Assembly (NCBI GenBank): GCA_003510435.1
Contig: DOMK01000009.1
Coordinates: 24,675-88,674, forward strand
Source: Candidatus Magasanikiibacteriota bacterium
GTDB lineage: Bacteria > Patescibacteriota > Patescibacteriia > Magasanikbacterales > UBA922
Direction: 5' to 3'
DNA: 64,000 bases
In this document: one piece after another, positions 64 to 57,217 of the stretch
Layout of the letters: the number at the start of each line of letters is the position of its first letter
Position numbering within the stretch: the stretch's first letter is position 1
Translations under genes and position numbers: made by a program
Notes under the pieces: generated by a model
What the model was told of the DNA's origin: nothing
The model's database searches: none
The model's input: only the letters and a program-made list of their open reading frames with translations

Positions 64-228
64 TTATTTACCCTCGTCAACTATTTCTGCTTCCACATTT
101 TCGCCATCAATTTTATTGACTAGTAAAGAAATTCCACAAACATTGCACTCTATTACTTGTTCAACGTCTAAATTTGGATAAGAAAATAAATCTACTTCAT
201 TTTTACATTCTGGACAAATTAGTTTCAT
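64..228 (-). CDS. LysW/ArgW-like amino-group carrier protein (zinc ribbon), 54 aa; not in ORF track (below length cutoff)
   Basis: Manual minus-strand translation gives MKLICPECKNEVDLFSYPNLDVEQVIECNVCGISLLVNKIDGENVEAEIVDEGK. It aligns position by position with Thermus LysW (CPECGAELRLENPELGELVVCEDCGAELEVV...acidic tail). The C-terminal motif is DEGK rather than the canonical EDWGE. Confidence 0.55.
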   Translation of the reverse strand: MKLICPECKNEVDLFSYPNLDVEQVIECNVCGISLLVNKIDGENVEAEIVDEGK

Positions 229-379
229 AGTGTTAATATTATTATTAATTAAGCGCTCATTATTCTAACATAATTAGATAATTTAATCAATACCACCCGA
301 CCACTCAACCACCCGACCACTCAACCACACAATTGGCCAAGTGGTAAAGTGGTGAAGTGATGAGGTGGTCAAGTGTATT

Positions 380-1288
380 ATGAAAAGTATCCAAGTCCCC
401 TGCTCGGCCATTGCCCAAAAATTAGGCATTCCTGGCGATGTTTTTCTCAAACGAGAAGATCAACACAAATACGGTTCGCATAAAGGTCGGTCTCTCCCTA
501 TAATGATAAAAAAATATTTCAAAGAGGAAGGTATAACAAATTTTGTCATTTCTTCTTCTGGAAATGCTGCTCTCGCTGCGATCAACTCTATTCAAGTCCA
601 CAACCGCAATAATCCAAGTAAATTAAAACTTACTATTTTTATTGGTAAAAAAATTGATCCAAAAAAATTAAAAGTTCTTTTGGCTGTGATTGATGATGTT
701 AATATAAAACTAGAACAAGTAGAACGACCAAAACAAACTGCTTTTAAAATTGATAAAGATGGTGAAGCAAAACTTCTAAGACAATCAACTGATGATAGCG
801 CTTTGACTGGTTATTTTGAATTAGCTCAAGAACTTGATAAAATTCCTAACTTGCAAGCTATCTTTGTCCCTACTTCTTCTGGCACCACTGCCCAGGCACT
901 GGGTGAAGCTTTCCAAACTGAATTTTTAACGCAAAAACCACAAATTCATATTGTGCAAACCAATTCTTGCCATCCCATGGCCGAATATTTTCAACCAGAT
1001 TATTTAAAAAATCATCCTTATGCTAAGGCAGAAAAATCTATAGCTGGTGCGATTGTTGACAACATTGCTTTTCGTAAAAAAAAAGTTATTAATACAATTA
1101 AAACCAGTGGCGGATTTGGTTGGATTGTAGACAATGAAGATCTAAAAGAAGCTATGGAACTAAGTAAAGACGGTTGTCATTTAGTAATTTCTTCCAACTC
1201 GGCTTTATCAATTGCCGGATTAAAAAAAGCCGTAGAAAACGACTTTAAATTCACTGGTAATGTTGTCTGTTTGATTACCGGGATGTAA
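380..1288 (+). CDS. PLP-dependent fold-type II enzyme, threonine synthase-like (short form). The ORF track starts at a GTG at 365; the ATG at 380 is more likely.
   Basis: KREDQHKYGSHKGR matches K-x-E-x-x-NPTGSFKDR, and SSSGNAALAAIN matches ASTGNTSAAxAAY. It is divergent from the LysW-like ORF. Confidence 0.55.
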   Translation: MKSIQVPCSAIAQKLGIPGDVFLKREDQHKYGSHKGRSLPIMIKKYFKEEGITNFVISSSGNAALAAINSIQVHNRNNPSKLKLTIFIGKKIDPKKLKVLLAVIDDVNIKLEQVERPKQTAFKIDKDGEAKLLRQSTDDSALTGYFELAQELDKIPNLQAIFVPTSSGTTAQALGEAFQTEFLTQKPQIHIVQTNSCHPMAEYFQPDYLKNHPYAKAEKSIAGAIVDNIAFRKKKVINTIKTSGGFGWIVDNEDLKEAMELSKDGCHLVISSNSALSIAGLKKAVENDFKFTGNVVCLITGM

Positions 1289-1369: not shown

Positions 1370-2071
1370 TCATATGTTACGTGAGAATATGATACTCACA
1401 ATATTTCCAGGATCATCTTTGGTTCCATTTCCACCTTTGGTGGTGTAATACTGGTCTTGAATTTTAAGGCCAGTTTTTTTAAATATATTTTCTAATTCTT
1501 CCAAAGTAAAACCATGATAATATCTCTCTCCCAAAACTTCACTTTGTGAATTCATCCACGGGATCAAAAAATCTCCAGATTTAAATTCATTAAACTTTCC
1601 ATTGGCTACCAATTTTTGCGCTGTGTTGGAATACATGTTCCAATTAGTCATTATAATATACGAACCTGATTTTAATACTCGCTTCATTTCTTGCAATGAT
1701 TTAATTCTAGATTCTTCATCTGGTAAATGATGAAAAGTGGCAATGCAATACACCACATCAAATTCATTATCTTTAAATGGCAACTTAGTCATCTCGCCTA
1801 TTCTAAAATCTATGCCAGAAAATTTTTCTTTGGCAATTTTTATCTGTTCCTCACTCTGATCCATACCAATATATTTCACATCTTGAAAATCCTGGAAAAG
1901 ATGGTATAATCTGCCTGACCCACAACCAAGGTCAAGGACTTTAAAACCATCCTTTGTATATTTTTGTAAAGGTTTTAAATCATCCCAAAGATAGCGCCGA
2001 GTCTTTGCAAACAGATGAGCAATTTTATTATAAGTTTCTCTATTAAGTTTAATCAAATCCTTATCCTTCAT
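1370..2071 (-). CDS. class I SAM-dependent methyltransferase
   Basis: VLDLGCGSGRL motif I and FDVVYCIATFHHL motif. Confidence 0.7.
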   Translation of the reverse strand: MKDKDLIKLNRETYNKIAHLFAKTRRYLWDDLKPLQKYTKDGFKVLDLGCGSGRLYHLFQDFQDVKYIGMDQSEEQIKIAKEKFSGIDFRIGEMTKLPFKDNEFDVVYCIATFHHLPDEESRIKSLQEMKRVLKSGSYIIMTNWNMYSNTAQKLVANGKFNEFKSGDFLIPWMNSQSEVLGERYYHGFTLEELENIFKKTGLKIQDQYYTTKGGNGTKDDPGNIVSIIFSRNI

Positions 2072-2145: not shown

Positions 2146-3816
2146 ATGAATATAGAACAAATAATCACGAAAATTATATCCTTTCAACCCACTACCCGGG
2201 CTGAATTTGATGATGTAAAAAGAAAAGTCTGTAACAAACTCTCAATTAACCAAATTTCTAATCGCGACCTGCTACAAGCTTACCAAAATTTATTAAAAAA
2301 GAAAAGAGTTGAGCCAGACAAAATTTTGGAAAGATTCATGCGTAAAGCTGATATTAGAACCTTATCTGGCGTAGCCGTTGTCACCTCCCTCTGTAAGCCC
2401 TATAATTGCCCTGGAAAATGCATTTACTGTCCAACTGAGGCTAGAATGCCAAAAAGCTATTTGGCCAGTGAACCAGCCGCTGCCAGAGCCCTGGCTCTGC
2501 AATTTGACCCTTATGAGCAAATGACCAGACGAATAGAAATGCTAAGGCTCTCTGGTCACCCCACTGACAAAATTGAATATATTATAAAAGGCGGATCTTG
2601 GAATGTCTATCCATTAAAATATCAATACTGGTTTATATTGGAATCTTTCCGGGCGGCAAATAATCTCGAACGAAGTGAGAGATCCCTTTTCGAAGCCTCT
2701 TCAAATGCATTAAAAAGCGATTCCTCAGTCGCTTCGCTCCTTCGGAATTTAAAAAAAGAACAAAACTACAATGACAAGATTGCAAAACACAAAATAATTG
2801 GCCTCACTCTAGAAACCAGACCCGACTGCATCACTCCAGACACAATCCATCACATGCGCCAAATGGGTTGTACAAGAATCGAACTGGGTTTGCAAGCGCC
2901 AGATGATAAAATTTTAAAATTGGTGAAACGCGGACACACAGTAGAGCAATTTAAAGACGCAATGCTTTTACTTCGTCAAGCTGGGTTTAAAGTTGATTTG
3001 CATTTTATGCCTGACCTCCCTGGTACTACTGCCAAGCATGATGTAGAGATGTATAAATCATTATTTACTGATCCTGGCTTTAAACCAGACATGGTAAAAA
3101 TTTATCCGTGTACTGTAATTAAAACGGCTGACTTGTATAAATGGTATAAACAAAAAAAATATAAACCATATTCAGAAAAGAAATTATTTGAAGCGTTAAT
3201 TGTCATGAAAATTAGTACGCCTCGTTATTGTCGTATCTCTAGATTGATTCGGGATATTCCTGATAACGAAATTATGGGCGGAAACATGATTACCAATCTT
3301 CGTCAAAATTTAAAAAAGGAAATGGCCATACGCGGACTAAAGTGCGAATGCTTGCGTTGCCGTGAAGTTGGTCACTCCACTCTACCACCTAACCACCTTA
3401 CCACTCTACCACCTAAATTGTTTGTTGATAAATATGAGACAACTGGTGGAACAGAATATTTTTTAAGTTATGAAGACAAAAAACGACAAGTGGTTTATGG
3501 TTTCCTGCGCTTGCGTTTACCCAACAAAGAAAAAAATAACTCAAACCTTTCTAGCCTTTTGGGCTTTTCAAGCCTTTCAAGCATTTCTTTTATTCGCGAA
3601 CTCCACACTTACGGTCAACTACTTGAACTAGGTACAAAAAATAAATCTGCTAGCCAGCACAAAGGTTTGGGTAAAAAATTAGTTGAAGAAGCTGAAAAGA
3701 TTGCCAAAAAAAATAGATATAAAAAACTAGCTGTAATTTCTGGGGTGGGAGTGCGTGGGTATTATCGAAAACTGGGGTATAAATTGGAAAAAACGTATAT
3801 GACAAAAAACATATAA
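2146..3816 (+). CDS. elp3: Elp3-like radical SAM / GNAT acetyltransferase (tRNA U34 carboxymethyluridine synthase homolog)
   Basis: CPGKCIYCP radical SAM Cx4Cx2C motif. The C-terminal GNAT region contains GLGKKLVEEAEKIA. Length is 556 aa, with low-complexity inserts (TLPPNHLTTLPP, SSLLGFSSLSS). Confidence 0.85.
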   Translation: MNIEQIITKIISFQPTTRAEFDDVKRKVCNKLSINQISNRDLLQAYQNLLKKKRVEPDKILERFMRKADIRTLSGVAVVTSLCKPYNCPGKCIYCPTEARMPKSYLASEPAAARALALQFDPYEQMTRRIEMLRLSGHPTDKIEYIIKGGSWNVYPLKYQYWFILESFRAANNLERSERSLFEASSNALKSDSSVASLLRNLKKEQNYNDKIAKHKIIGLTLETRPDCITPDTIHHMRQMGCTRIELGLQAPDDKILKLVKRGHTVEQFKDAMLLLRQAGFKVDLHFMPDLPGTTAKHDVEMYKSLFTDPGFKPDMVKIYPCTVIKTADLYKWYKQKKYKPYSEKKLFEALIVMKISTPRYCRISRLIRDIPDNEIMGGNMITNLRQNLKKEMAIRGLKCECLRCREVGHSTLPPNHLTTLPPKLFVDKYETTGGTEYFLSYEDKKRQVVYGFLRLRLPNKEKNNSNLSSLLGFSSLSSISFIRELHTYGQLLELGTKNKSASQHKGLGKKLVEEAEKIAKKNRYKKLAVISGVGVRGYYRKLGYKLEKTYMTKNI

Positions 3817-41532: not shown

Positions 41533-42432
41533 TTATTCCACTTCCTTTAAAATTTCAGAAATCTCTACCAAATTCAAACCCATAACCAAAGCAATCGCAA
41601 TCGCTGCTAAGGCTGGATAAACGTCTTCTTGTCTTTTTGCATCAAACAAATACATCGGCACCATTGAACCATGATAAGAAATTTTAAAATAAATACCAAT
41701 TGTTTCACCTGCCTCCCCTGTCTTAAAAAGCACATCACTCGCTCGCACATCTGCTTCGACATGAAAACCAAAAGTAAAAATATCTGCCTCAGTTTTATTA
41801 CCCATTACAAAAATATCTTCCTCATCGCGATTTAAAATTGCAAAACTATTTTTATCAAGTGTACTAATCATTAATCTTAATTCCTGACTAAGTTTTTTTA
41901 AAGTTTTGAAATATTCTAAATAAGCCTCATTGAGTGAAGTCACTACCCCAACTTTACACGGCGCCATAGAAGTGAGATGTTTCAAATCTCCTGGTTTACT
42001 AGCCAACATTTCCAAAACCAAAACTTCAGGATAATTTTTATCCCGCTTTAAAATTAATTTAAAAGCTCTTAAAAATATCTGACACCAACCATAAACTGAT
42101 CTACCCGGGTCAACCATACCAATAACTGCCAAAGGTAAACCAAACTCATTATTATGAGCATCTGGATTACCAACCACTCTAAATTTTGTACTCAAAACTT
42201 TTACCACCAACTTTTTTAAACCCCTTTTTCCCACTGAACCAGCAATCCCAATAATATCTGGTTCATATTTTTTTAAAATCAGACGAGTAAAAAATCTAAG
42301 AAATTTTTTAACAATTGTTTTCATAAAATTATCTATTTGGTGGTACTTGGTAATATTGTAAAATAAATTTAGCAATTTCTCCAAAAGCTGGCGCGGTCGT
42401 ACTATCAGCCCAAGTCCGAGCTGGTTTTTCAA
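41533..42432 (-). CDS. Mur ligase family protein, MurF-like P-loop and middle domains only; no N- or C-terminal domain. The start is probably MKTIVKK near 42324.
   Basis: GIAGSVGKRG P-loop; GNPDAHNNEFGLPLAVIGM matches the MurF GNxNNxIGVPLT motif; ...VVTSLNEAYLEYF. The ORF stops where the Mur C-terminal domain should begin. Confidence 0.55.
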   Translation of the reverse strand: MKNQLGLGLIVRPRQLLEKLLNLFYNITKYHQIDNFMKTIVKKFLRFFTRLILKKYEPDIIGIAGSVGKRGLKKLVVKVLSTKFRVVGNPDAHNNEFGLPLAVIGMVDPGRSVYGWCQIFLRAFKLILKRDKNYPEVLVLEMLASKPGDLKHLTSMAPCKVGVVTSLNEAYLEYFKTLKKLSQELRLMISTLDKNSFAILNRDEEDIFVMGNKTEADIFTFGFHVEADVRASDVLFKTGEAGETIGIYFKISYHGSMVPMYLFDAKRQEDVYPALAAIAIALVMGLNLVEISEILKEVE

Positions 42433-44101
42433 ATTTTATTAACATTACAAATTTTGGATTATCAGATGGAAATACACCAATAAAAGTCTGGATTGTCTCG
42501 GCTGTATAGCCACCAGGCCCTGGAATTTGCGCTGTACCAGTCTTTCCCCCAACATAATAACCTGGCACCCCAGCTCGCTTGGCATGGCCGTTTTCTACCA
42601 CACTGGTAAGCATGCCGAGCAATAAAACTGACGTCTGATTATTCAAAACAGTTCTAGTTTCTTTTGGATTTCTTTTTTCAATTGTACCATCAGCCATACG
42701 CACTTCTTCTACTATATATGGTTTATAAAGTTTTCCACCATTAACTATCGCTGAAAAAGCTGAGACCAACTGCAATGGAGTGGCGGTAATACCTTGTCCA
42801 AACGAAGCGGTTGCACCATAGCAATCAATCTTATCACCTTTATTTTCTTTAAGAGTAGAAATATTGCCCCCGACTTCGCTATCCAATTCTAGTCCACTCT
42901 GAAAACCAAAACCAAAATCTTCTAAATATTTAATTTCTCTTTTCTTACCCAATTGTTCGGCCACAAATACCATACCAGTATTTACAGAATTTTCCAAAAC
43001 TCCAATCATACTCTGTGTCTGATACGACTTATCATCAGCATTTCTAATTGGCGTTTGACACAAACCAGCTCGTGAGCCACTATCAAAAAAAGTTGTATTT
43101 GGCGACACCAAACCCTCATTAATCGCCGCCGCCATTAAAATAGGTTTGAAAACTGAACCTGGTTCATACGGGGTAAATATATTTGAATTATTATATACAT
43201 CAGCATTTTCTACCTGGCCATAATTATTTGGATCAAAATCAGGCAAACTACACATAGTTCTTATTGCCCCATTGTATGGATCTATAAGTATAAGAGATGC
43301 GGTCTTAGCGCCAAATTCTTGTCTATAAGCTTCTAGTCTTTCACAGGCTTTATATTGAATTGTCCGATCAATAGTCAAAAGCAAATCAGCTCCATCTTCT
43401 GAGGCCTTCAAATAACGATCAGCCAATGGAATAAACGCCCCTACAGCACTCTTGGCTCCCTGGACAAAGCCACCTTTACCAGCCAATTCTTTTTGCCAAT
43501 AACCTTCAATTCCATAATGCCCAATATTATTACCGTCTTTATCCTTACCCAAAAAGCCAATCACTGGCGCCGCCAAATTTCCTTCGGGATAAAAACGAAA
43601 TGGCTGGCGCACAAAATCAATTCCAACCAAATTCAAAGTGGTTATTTTTTGCATTGTCATTTCATCGATTTTATTTTCAATTGGTTCATATGGATCAGTC
43701 CTTTTATTTAATTGGGTAAGAATCTTTAATTTTTTGGCATCATCATAATTAAAAACCTCGGCTAATTTTTGCAAAACCAAATTAGCTTCTTCATTAGTTT
43801 TAATTTTTCTCGTATCAGCATAAACCAAAAAATAATCACGATTAATCGCTAGTGGATATTCTTCTTTGGTGCGTGAATCTTGAATATACACACTCCCGCG
43901 TTTGGGAAATAATTTATTATACATGTCGTGTGAACCAGCCGCCAATGCCAAATAAAAATTATTTTCCCAAATCATTAACATGAAAAGTCGGCCTACCACC
44001 ACCACAGCCAACAAAACAAATAAAACCCACATTATTTTTAAACGTGGATCACTGTTGGTAGTTTTTCTATTACTAGATTTGTAGGCTGTTTGATAAAACA
44101 T
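42329..44101 (-). CDS. penicillin-binding protein 2 / FtsI-type transpeptidase
   Basis: SxxK (GSVFKP), SxN (ENSVNTG) and KTG (GKTGTA) motifs; 590 aa. Confidence 0.85.
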   Translation of the reverse strand: MFYQTAYKSSNRKTTNSDPRLKIMWVLFVLLAVVVVGRLFMLMIWENNFYLALAAGSHDMYNKLFPKRGSVYIQDSRTKEEYPLAINRDYFLVYADTRKIKTNEEANLVLQKLAEVFNYDDAKKLKILTQLNKRTDPYEPIENKIDEMTMQKITTLNLVGIDFVRQPFRFYPEGNLAAPVIGFLGKDKDGNNIGHYGIEGYWQKELAGKGGFVQGAKSAVGAFIPLADRYLKASEDGADLLLTIDRTIQYKACERLEAYRQEFGAKTASLILIDPYNGAIRTMCSLPDFDPNNYGQVENADVYNNSNIFTPYEPGSVFKPILMAAAINEGLVSPNTTFFDSGSRAGLCQTPIRNADDKSYQTQSMIGVLENSVNTGMVFVAEQLGKKREIKYLEDFGFGFQSGLELDSEVGGNISTLKENKGDKIDCYGATASFGQGITATPLQLVSAFSAIVNGGKLYKPYIVEEVRMADGTIEKRNPKETRTVLNNQTSVLLLGMLTSVVENGHAKRAGVPGYYVGGKTGTAQIPGPGGYTAETIQTFIGVFPSDNPKFVMLIKFEKPARTWADSTTAPAFGEIAKFILQYYQVPPNR

Positions 44102-56212: not shown

Positions 56213-56305
56213 CACCGAACCACTTTACCACCTGACCACACAATCAAACAAAAAGAGCCGAAGGCTCTTTTTGTTATGTGATAAAGTGCTTAAGTGTTTA
56301 GGTGG

Positions 56306-57217
56306 TTAAGTGATATTCCATTCCTCTTTCAACTTTTTAATTCCCTCTTCTAAATTTACAGTCGGCTCCCAACCTAGCAATATTTTAGCTTTAGTATTAT
56401 CAGCTTTGGTATATTTCATTTCACCAGACATTTCTGGGATATTAATTGTCGGACCACCAATTAAACCAGCTAATTGATTAACTGAGTAGGGATTGCCATT
56501 GCCAATATTAATAACCTCACCCTTCCCTATTGTATCTTTTGTCATGGCAAGTAAATTAGCTCTTACCACATCTGATACATGGGTATAATCACGATACATC
56601 TCACCATTCCCCCGGATAGTCATTGGTTCATTATTTTTTCTCTGTTGTAAAAATCTACCAATTACCAAAGCATAAGCGCCATTGGGATCTGCATATGGGC
56701 CATAGACATTAAAATAAACTAGAGAAACAGTTTCCAATCCGTACAAATCTGAAAACAAACGGCAGTAGTGTTCGCCAATATATTTGTGCAAAGCATAAGG
56801 AGCTAGAGGCTTCTTTACTACTCCATCTTCTTTCAGAGGGTAAACTTCCTGATCACCATAAGCTGATGATGAGGAAGAAAATACTACCCGTTTTACACCG
56901 TTGTCACGGGCTGACAATAAAACATTTAATGTGCCATTAACATTGACATTGTGAGTCTCCAAAGGTTGTTCAACTGAAAAAACTACCCGCGGTAAAGCTG
57001 CCATATGAAACACTCCATCCACACCTGTCATAGCTTTATTTAATTCCTCTAAATTGCGGATATCACCTTCTACATACTCTACACCTTCTTGAAAACGCTC
57101 TGGTTTCTTACCGCCAGCGTAATTATCAAATACCACTACCTCATGACCTTCGGCTAATAATTGTATTACGAGGTTGGTGCCAATAAACCCAGCCCCGCCT
57201 GTAACTAAATATTTCAT
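56306..57217 (-). CDS. NAD-dependent nucleotide-sugar epimerase/dehydratase
   Basis: MKYLVTGGAGFIGTNL Rossmann fold and YxxxK. Confidence 0.75.
   Translation of the reverse strand: MKYLVTGGAGFIGTNLVIQLLAEGHEVVVFDNYAGGKKPERFQEGVEYVEGDIRNLEELNKAMTGVDGVFHMAALPRVVFSVEQPLETHNVNVNGTLNVLLSARDNGVKRVVFSSSSSAYGDQEVYPLKEDGVVKKPLAPYALHKYIGEHYCRLFSDLYGLETVSLVYFNVYGPYADPNGAYALVIGRFLQQRKNNEPMTIRGNGEMYRDYTHVSDVVRANLLAMTKDTIGKGEVINIGNGNPYSVNQLAGLIGGPTINIPEMSGEMKYTKADNTKAKILLGWEPTVNLEEGIKKLKEEWNIT

Follow-up and report, generated by a model that had tools for sequence, protein, structure and literature searches.

Carrier proteins of the LysW type take part in lysine and arginine synthesis in thermophiles and archaea, and a few natural-product pathways of actinomycetes also use them. 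LysW/ArgW of Thermus thermophilus, Sulfolobus and Thermococcus kodakarensis (structures 3wwl, 3wwn, 5eio and 5k2m) are acidic proteins of ~54 amino acids (aa) with a CPxC...CxxCG pattern and a flexible, conserved tail, EDWGE, that ends in Glu; their genes are clustered with those for an ATP-grasp ligase and a hydrolase, and their partners are RimK/LysX, LysZ, LysY, LysJ and LysK. LysW homologues have reportedly been found, by the Nishiyama laboratory, to be re-used in Streptomyces secondary metabolism, and these Streptomyces carriers provide a precedent for a LysW homologue outside lysine or arginine synthesis. Here we describe a 54-aa acidic protein with a LysW-like zinc-ribbon fold (hereafter the ribbon), encoded at positions 64-228 (minus strand) of a 64,000-nucleotide stretch of DNA (the window; contig DOMK01000009.1, positions 24,675 to 88,674) from a Candidatus Magasanikiibacteriota bacterium, of the Patescibacteria or candidate phyla radiation (CPR). 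It matches LysW/ArgW in size, Cys pattern, acidity and possession of a flexible conserved tail and, in relatives, in the clustering of its gene with those for an ATP-grasp ligase and a putative hydrolase. It differs in its tail, which ends in ...E-(G/E)-K; in its candidate partners, a PF02655-type ATP-grasp protein and, as modifier, a pyridoxal phosphate (PLP) enzyme resembling threonine synthase (ThrC); and in its setting, a CPR peptidoglycan cluster rather than lysine or arginine biosynthesis. Whereas the Streptomyces carriers retain the Glu terminus and enzymes of the LysX/Z/Y/J type, the ribbon system retains none of these.

The open reading frame (ORF) at 64-228, with its stop codon at 64-66, translates to MKLICPECKNEVDLFSYPNLDVEQVIECNVCGISLLVNKIDGENVEAEIVDEGK, identical to the product given in the first-pass annotation, which had left it to be seen whether relatives keep so small an ORF. 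They do: a search of 5.8 billion proteins returned more than 120 homologue clusters at 60-100% identity, nearly all of 53-54 aa and from Magasanikbacteria and other Patescibacteria; a scan that took a single genome for each GTDB species yielded relatives in 260 genomes; and identical copies are present in groundwater metagenomes. We fetched 80 related GTDB loci out of these 260 genomes, and locus counts out of 80 below refer to them. Across 68 orthologous coding sequences, the proportion of synonymous differences (pS) was 0.75, at saturation, against 0.24 for nonsynonymous ones (pN), with dN/dS ~0.27 in closer pairs. This 54-codon ORF is thus a real gene, under purifying selection and widespread in the CPR. 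The same annotation had considered a carrier-type system unexpected in a reduced CPR-like genome; the family is instead common across the CPR and not peculiar to one genome.

Database names for the ribbon family are inconsistent, and include hypothetical protein, LysW, 'ribosomal protein S27E', 'RpoP' and 'sulfonate ABC transporter'. A 98%-identical protein is named 'hypothetical protein' at NCBI and an 80%-identical one 'Lysine biosynthesis protein LysW' in UniRef, while several family members with the EEEK tail described below are called 'sulfonate ABC transporter' by NCBI, in what looks like an annotation error. Similarly, many GTDB metagenome-assembled genomes with this typical Patescibacteria locus (L010, L018, L022 and others) are titled 'uncultured Gammaproteobacteria bacterium', which also looks like an annotation error.

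The zinc-ribbon core (136-216, minus strand) has four Cys that are invariant in alignments of homologues: C5 and C8 in CPECKN, and C28 and C31 in ECxxCG. Its top Pfam match was Zn_ribbon_LysW (PF21344; E 9e-5), which covers residues 5-41 and scores 22.5 bits against a gathering score of 27; many homologues carry a precomputed match to this family. Scores against the NCBIfam LysW models were likewise low, at 20.9 for TIGR01206 (cut-off 53.2) and 18 for NF041070 (cut-off 75). With a profile of 33 homologues, the best PDB matches were LysW chains (5k2m_E, 3wwl), at a weak E of 0.02-0.07, and hhalign aligned the ribbon profile with Thermus LysW over 39 columns at a probability of 90.7%, in a comparison where the first 36 residues of the LysW sequence agree with the alignment from the PDB profile search and the last 18 are provisional.

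The AlphaFold2 model of the ribbon was confident, with a predicted local distance difference test score (pLDDT) of 90.3 overall and of 91-94 outside residues 51-54, and the top three matches in a Foldseek search of the PDB were Thermus LysW (3wwl, 3wwn_B and 5eio_C), with template-modelling scores (TM) of 0.75-0.77, root-mean-square deviations (rmsd) of 1.4-2.2 Å and 30% identity; for 3wwl, TM was 0.77, rmsd 2.2 and probability 1.00. Thermococcus LysW followed shortly below. The ribbon is also strongly acidic, with an isoelectric point (pI) of 4.05 and a net charge of -8.5. Its resemblance to LysW hence rests on agreement in fold, size, charge and tail flexibility, and in its modelled fold the ribbon is LysW-like. 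The LysW pattern noted in the first-pass annotation therefore holds for fold and sequence pattern, and the suggested family check does return LysW on top, but below every curated LysW threshold. An identity as ribosomal protein S27e or RpoP was considered and rejected, given a weak score (22.9 against 70) and an unfitting context.

That the ribbon serves lysine or arginine biosynthesis as a canonical LysW/ArgW amino-group carrier, which its fold and pattern and the label 'lysine biosynthesis protein LysW' given to some homologues by JGI and UniRef would suggest, is hardly tenable. Besides falling below all curated cut-offs, the ribbon lacks both EDWGE and a terminal Glu, and no Pfam families for LysX, LysZ, LysY, LysJ or LysK were found among the genes of the ~100 loci inspected, a count that covers the loci and not whole genomes. 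The LysX-like, kinase and reductase partners that had been expected to lie left of the window did not materialise there either: the 10 kb on that side contain no LysX, LysZ, LysY or LysK.

The most conserved parts of the ribbon are the four Cys, CPECKN, ECxxCG and the C-terminus. In the tail, D51-E52-G53-K54 (codons at 67-78, minus strand), the last three residues are invariant and D51 nearly so in the homologue alignment, and the tail reads DEGK in all 81 orthologues of the fetched loci, which bears out the variant terminus reported earlier in place of EDWGE. This segment appears flexible in the model (mean pLDDT 61 for residues 51-54). Among listed homologues the last residue is Lys in 119 of 120 and in 112 of 112 (231/232). 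A profile search of 1.84 billion cluster representatives uncovered a wider set of ribbons, of 53-68 aa, ending in ...(I/V)(I/V)EEEK. This clade comprises at least 395 clusters, which come from Dojkabacteria, Spechtbacteria and unclassified Patescibacteria, and its profile matches that of the DEGK ribbons at a probability of 99.6%; scanning metagenomes with the EEEK alignment gave no confirmed match. More divergent tails read TQTSK, LKDSK, EIEK and DDKK, and the first two of these share only the Lys. What is constant family-wide is therefore a C-terminal Lys, usually after acidic residues, and not EDWGE with its terminal Glu. A tandem two-ribbon form with a single EEEK tail (P0286) was also found. 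Other tandem two-ribbon LysW-like proteins (P0285, P0290, P0298, P0301 and P0310) have long basic/acidic tails and probably belong to different systems. An apparent covariation of the residue before the terminal Lys (G or E) with that following the PLP lysine of the neighbouring enzyme (G/I or D) was discarded as uninformative, as it merely tracks the two clades.

The neighbouring gene, at 380-1288 on the plus strand, encodes a fold-type-II PLP enzyme of 302 aa (Pfam PALP, 100.9 bits). As reported earlier, it is short, ThrC-like and divergent from the ribbon gene, with the motif GSHKGR, and we place its true start at the ATG at 380; the PLP lysine, K35 (482-484), is invariant. It is 100% identical to an NCBI Magasanikbacteria protein. 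Its best score against the NCBIfam ThrC models was 58 bits (cut-off 421), in a match that begins at model position 66-76, and its best match among PDB sequences was Aquifex ThrC (E 1e-5). In Foldseek, its AlphaFold2 model (pLDDT 89.8) was closest to ThrC (2zsj, TM 0.77), with TdcB, serine racemase and aspartate racemase about equal (TM 0.73-0.78). Compared with PRK05638, PRK08329 and PRK06450, models of archaeal-type ThrC, the enzyme is missing the first 45-75 positions. We therefore considered whether the ribbon could be the detached N-terminal zinc ribbon of an archaeal-type ThrC, and rejected it as an identification, as the ribbon matched no ThrC model at E <= 1 and no PDB ThrC chain; given the positions missing from the PLP enzyme, the idea may still be kept as a lead.

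The PLP enzyme proved to be the constant companion of the ribbon. By tblastn, its orthologue is divergent from and adjacent to the ribbon gene in 80/80 loci, usually 40-250 bp apart, and a PALP gene lies within 2.5 kb of the ribbon in 11/11 independent distant contexts from the EEEK and other-tail clades. In the short contigs L089, L091 and L099 (locus designations are given where loci need to be told apart), the PALP N-terminus adjoins the ribbon in every case, and in L103 the two-ribbon protein P0286 is one small ORF from PALP and near FtsW and MurG. The tie between the two genes, first seen in the window alone, is thus upheld far beyond it, and supports a functional link between the ribbon and the divergent ThrC-like gene.

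On its other side, the ribbon gene is accompanied in most of the 80 loci by genes for a MurC/Mpl-like ligase (75/80), an ATE_C-like (arginyltransferase-like) protein (69/80) and an MraY-like transferase (68/80), the last scoring 185 bits against an MraY cut-off of 192. An ATP-grasp gene and a gene for a 253-aa amidase-like protein, adjacent to each other, are in the array with the ribbon in 53-54 of the 80 Magasanikbacteria-type loci, where the order is invariably ATP-grasp, 253-aa protein, MraY-like, ATE-like, MurC-like, an optional NUDIX gene, antisense ribbon and PALP; L043 has a compact array with MurB divergent from it. In distant clades the order becomes PALP, ATP-grasp, amidase and MraY, so that the gene set is kept despite rearrangement. 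In L090 and L093/L094, for example, the ribbon is divergent from an operon of PALP, ATP-grasp (PF02655), a 253-257-aa protein and MraY-like, which continues with two FemAB genes and a Mur ligase in L090, and with MurF-like, HAD, MurE (405 bits, above cut-off) and ATE_C-like genes in L093. JGI contig 3300072015 has FtsW-MurG, ribbon, PALP, ATP-grasp, NlpC/P60, MraY, two FemAB genes and a Mur ligase. L098 has ATP-grasp, amidase-like, MraY, DUF1611 and MurC-like genes, then MurB with the ribbon and then MurA with PALP; L097 has PALP, ribbon, MurC-like and DUF1611; L101 has PALP, VanY, ATP-grasp and amidase-like, with the ribbon 2.3 kb off; and the Dojkabacteria locus L096 has ribbon, PALP, ATP-grasp and a 261-aa protein, with no Mur genes adjacent. 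The cell-wall genes seen in some ribbon loci thus include MurA, MurB, MurE, MurF-like, MurG, FtsW and VanY. Judged by this gene content, the genomic setting is peptidoglycan precursor synthesis and not lysine or arginine biosynthesis, and the ribbon belongs to a Patescibacteria-wide module whose constant partner is the PLP enzyme, joined in most lineages by an ATP-grasp protein and an amidase-like protein, among murein-precursor genes.

Several other features of these clusters deserve mention. A DUF1611 gene lies between the MurC-like and MraY-like genes in other Patescibacteria (L097 3117-4253, L098 11129-12268), and a VanY-type D,D-carboxypeptidase gene between PALP and ATP-grasp in L101 (2431-3639). 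ATE_C-like or FemAB proteins hold equivalent cluster positions (L001 14510-15181, L043 11561-12208, L090 1431-3663), and from this equivalence the ATE/Bpt-like enzyme may be an aminoacyl-tRNA-dependent cross-bridge transferase in some CPR lineages.

The ATP-grasp and amidase-like proteins are both far from solved structures. The former (ATP-grasp_3) matches PF02655 at 24-33 bits and is only marginally similar to RimK (21.6 bits over 25 residues; rimK_fam 13.8 against 143); its best NCBIfam match was PRK06524 (111 bits, cut-off 684), followed by LdmS (32 bits), and its best PDB match had an E of ~0.02. The notion that a ligase partners the ribbon therefore survives, in that an ATP-grasp gene is in the same cluster in most relatives, but this ligase would be of the PF02655 type and not of the RimK/LysX type first envisaged. 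In the amidase-like family (236-272 aa), the Cys of G(I/V)DCSG and one His are invariant and a second His is nearly so; the family's Pfam scores fell just short for NLPC_P60 (20.1-22.5, threshold 23) and Amidase_6 (20.7, threshold 23.2), and one homologue carries a precomputed NLPC_P60 match described as 'weak'. Both genes also occur together in L090, L093, L096, JGI 3300072015, L098 and L101.

The setting, always that of peptidoglycan, suggests a step that tailors or supplies an amino acid for the making of stem peptides or cross-bridges. We tentatively propose, as the likeliest mechanism and with slightly less than even confidence, that the ribbon serves such a peptidoglycan-linked amino-acid step as a carrier or scaffold of the LysW type, with Lys at its terminus, and that the flexible tail (D/E)-E-(G/E)-K-COOH would be its working end. 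By analogy with LysW, the acidic ribbon would dock on basic partner enzymes and present its tail, to which the ATP-grasp ligase would attach a small amino-acid substrate; the PLP enzyme would transform, or add to, the tethered substrate; and the papain-like amidase would free the product and regenerate the carrier, with the released product going into stem-peptide or cross-bridge synthesis. Such a module would parallel the logic of LysW (carrier, LysX, modifying enzymes and LysK), though none of the enzyme families is shared and Lys forms the reactive end. We infer that loading is covalent, and likewise the sequence of the steps, the kind of substrate and the connection of the product with peptidoglycan.

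Various observations weigh against this proposal. The terminal residue is Lys instead of Glu, so that LysW chemistry, in which a gamma-carboxyl is joined to the substrate amine, is not directly transferable; PLP chemistry requires a free alpha-amine, which limits the ways in which a substrate may be tethered; and the ATP-grasp protein is not a member of the LysX/RimK family. Part of the synteny with cell-wall genes could simply reflect gene order inherited among streamlined CPR genomes, and PLP enzyme, ATP-grasp and peptidase (with VanY in L101) can also be read as a carrier-free module of racemase and D-amino-acid ligase. Finally, neither the 64-kb window nor the adjoining 10 kb on the left (74 kb together) was found to contain an ATP-grasp/amidase pair, and the pair is also lacking nearby in ~8 other loci with full flanks, from which it follows that the ribbon and PLP enzyme may work without a ligase.

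In the present genome, the 10 kb left of the window (L001) contain genes for a NUDIX protein, a 308-aa unknown, the MurC/Mpl-like ligase, a 185-aa unknown, a flavin reductase, the ATE-like protein and the MraY-like protein, followed by an AbiEii-type gene, CorA and a radical S-adenosylmethionine (SAM) gene. The latter three, with a small ORF upstream of the AbiEii-type toxin gene, occupy L001 16817-19706, after MraY-like. This is where relatives have the ATP-grasp/amidase pair, and suggests that an insertion or rearrangement displaced or replaced the pair in the present lineage.

The persistence of the ribbon-PALP pair with no ATP-grasp or amidase within 10 kb, in the present genome among others, is also what would be expected if the ribbon were a non-covalent accessory or regulatory subunit of the PLP enzyme, bound to it electrostatically and never loaded with substrate, its Lys-ended tail filling or gating a site, with ATP-grasp, amidase and Mur genes as mere neighbours. 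The PLP enzyme is, moreover, the sole universal neighbour (80/80 and 11/11), and the two proteins have complementary charge (pI 9.1 for the basic enzyme against 4.05 for the ribbon). Yet the nearest structural relatives of the ribbon are all covalent carriers, where the final residue of a disordered tail does not vary, this more typically marks a reactive or loaded end than a docking surface, and the ligase and hydrolase pair stays co-localised in most lineages despite rearrangement. We hence consider an accessory subunit the main alternative, though on the unlikely side.

The requirement for a free alpha-amine would be satisfied if the carrier worked with a polarity opposite to that of LysW. 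PylC and D-aspartate ligase acylate Lys epsilon-amines, and in such a 'carboxyl-group carrier' the ATP-grasp enzyme would acylate the epsilon-amine of the terminal Lys with the carboxylate of an amino acid. The alpha-amine of the substrate would stay free for ThrC-like PLP chemistry, after which an NlpC/P60-like isopeptidase would release the product, conceivably a non-standard or D-amino acid for the CPR stem peptide or cross-bridge, and restore the carrier. Though chemically coherent, this particular version is one we regard as unlikely.

The nature of the tail and its surroundings also bring to mind the stem peptide itself: E-x-K-COOH, whose L-Lys has its alpha-carboxylate and epsilon-amine free, could mimic the end of UDP-MurNAc-tripeptide (gamma-D-Glu-L-Lys). 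The ribbon would then be a decoy, primer or regulator of enzymes that act on the stem-peptide Lys, such as Fem/ATE-like transferases, the MurF-like ligase or a side-chain ligase of the ATP-grasp kind, and the PLP enzyme and ATP-grasp would be analogues of a racemase and a D-amino-acid ligase. Racemases are paired with the ATP-grasp enzymes Ddl, VanC and D-aspartate ligase, the PLP-enzyme model is equally near serine/aspartate racemases and ThrC (TM 0.73-0.78), and peptidoglycan genes stand all around (MurA, MurB, MurC-like, MurE, MurF-like, MraY-like, MurG, FtsW, FemAB/ATE-like and VanY). The idea is, however, pure analogy; Glu at -2 is not universal (TQTSK, LKDSK), and mimicry leaves unexplained why the LysW fold is retained and why it is the PLP enzyme, and not a Mur or Fem gene, that shows the strictest linkage. 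We think it quite improbable.

The carrier or scaffold we propose has partial parallels in other systems. In CysO-CysM-Mec+ of Mycobacterium tuberculosis, the C-terminus of a small protein brings a reactive group to a PALP-fold enzyme and a dedicated peptidase frees the amino acid; the ribbon system likewise combines a small protein with a conserved C-terminus, a PALP-fold enzyme and a putative peptidase. CysO, however, is a beta-grasp protein with a Gly-Gly thiocarboxylate and an E1-like activator, in contrast to a zinc ribbon with a Lys end and a possible ATP-grasp activator; we saw no ThiF/MoeB or JAMM genes in the inspected ribbon loci. In VanT/VanC/VanXY, and in aspartate racemase with D-aspartate ligase (Aslfm), PLP enzyme, ATP-grasp and peptidase are co-encoded and act on the stem peptide, D-aspartate ligase acylating the epsilon-amine of its L-Lys. 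The ribbon module shares this co-encoded trio, with a putative peptidase and with enzymes that are distant in sequence, and we know of no carrier protein in the Van or Aslfm modules. Lastly, RimK with ribosomal protein S6, and tubulin tyrosine ligase, exemplify ATP-grasp enzymes by which the acidic C-terminal tail of a protein is extended with further residues, much as proposed for the ribbon, but on a structural-protein target and with neither PLP enzyme nor amidase, whereas the ribbon is a dedicated 54-aa protein.

Downstream of the PLP-enzyme gene, the window encodes a class-I methyltransferase (1370-2071, minus strand) that aligns over almost its full length with Trm9 from the yeast Trm9-Trm112 complex (5cm2_Z, E 3e-10), and a bacterial Elp3 with radical SAM and GNAT domains (2146-3816, plus strand; TIGR01211, 530 bits against a cut-off of 350). 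This pair is kept in about half of the related loci and could be a (m)cm5U34 tRNA modification pair of the eukaryotic/archaeal type in a CPR bacterium. As Trm112 is itself a small zinc-ribbon-like partner in such a pairing, one may ask whether the ribbon is a Trm112-like activator of this methyltransferase, acting with Elp3 in tRNA U34 modification: the ribbon does have a weak Pfam Trm112p match (E 0.011, 16.1 bits against 22), Elp3 is bona fide and the methyltransferase aligns with Trm9. But methyltransferase and Elp3 follow PALP in only 40-44/80 loci (the methyltransferase is adjacent in 39-44) and in none of the compact distant-clade modules, while PALP is present in all, and no Trm112 structure was among the top 50 fold matches of the ribbon, so that this role is highly improbable.

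The divergent spacer between the ribbon and PLP-enzyme genes (229-379) is only 29-80 nt long in about half of the 80 related loci. Upstream of the ribbon gene it has a sigma-70-like promoter match, TTGATT-17-TAGAAT with TG (262-290, minus strand), which is a consensus match only. It also contains a palindromic array (292-375) of 8-nt periodic ACCACNNN / TGGTNAAG units, in which 292-331 holds five ACCACNNN units and 334-375 an inverted set of TGGTNAAG units, and which folds as a long imperfect hairpin (-33.9 kcal/mol, z -3.66). The C-rich/G-rich repeats reported earlier in this promoter region are thus real, but they are not a conserved promoter feature, as the motif occurs in the ribbon-PALP spacer of 0/80 relatives. 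Further arrays of ACCACNNN units are at 3376-3412 and 56219-56310, for a window total of 9 matches against 0 expected; two of the three array sites are long palindromes, and the third (3376-3412) is inside the Elp3 coding sequence and encodes ...LPPNHLTTLPPK... No Rfam family matches the 292-375 array. A conserved regulatory element or riboswitch was accordingly rejected, given the lack of an Rfam match, the absence in 80/80 relatives and the copies at two other window sites. The array is, by its distribution, a dispersed repeat specific to this genome and no part of the ribbon system, and these ACCACNNN arrays may constitute a small element of the repetitive extragenic palindrome (REP) or miniature inverted-repeat transposable element (MITE) kind.

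Two more features of the window were noted. Between the convergent PALP and methyltransferase genes, an inverted repeat at 1300-1377 (22 bp near-perfect, 32-nt loop, -20.7 kcal/mol, z -2.9) is probably a bidirectional terminator or other palindromic element. Far to the right, a 299-aa ORF (41533-42432, minus strand) has only the middle domain of a Mur ligase and overlaps by ~100 bp the end of a gene for a PBP2/FtsI-type transpeptidase (42329-44101, minus strand); the ORF could represent a MurE/F-like gene that has been truncated or frameshifted, or its start may be miscalled.

We found no paper in the literature describing the ribbon family or its module. The analysis brings to light a LysW-fold protein with another reactive end, Lys, and a wholly different set of enzymes, kept in hundreds of Patescibacteria species, and allows correction of the labels under which the family is filed in databases ('lysine biosynthesis protein LysW', 'sulfonate ABC transporter', 'ribosomal protein S27E' and 'RpoP'). 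Ribbon, PLP enzyme, ATP-grasp and amidase are all small and soluble, so that loading and release would be directly testable in vitro. Should the ribbon be a carrier, it would represent a new branch of carrier-protein biochemistry, and would point to an unrecognised step in the synthesis of cell-wall building blocks by host-dependent, biosynthetically poor bacteria.

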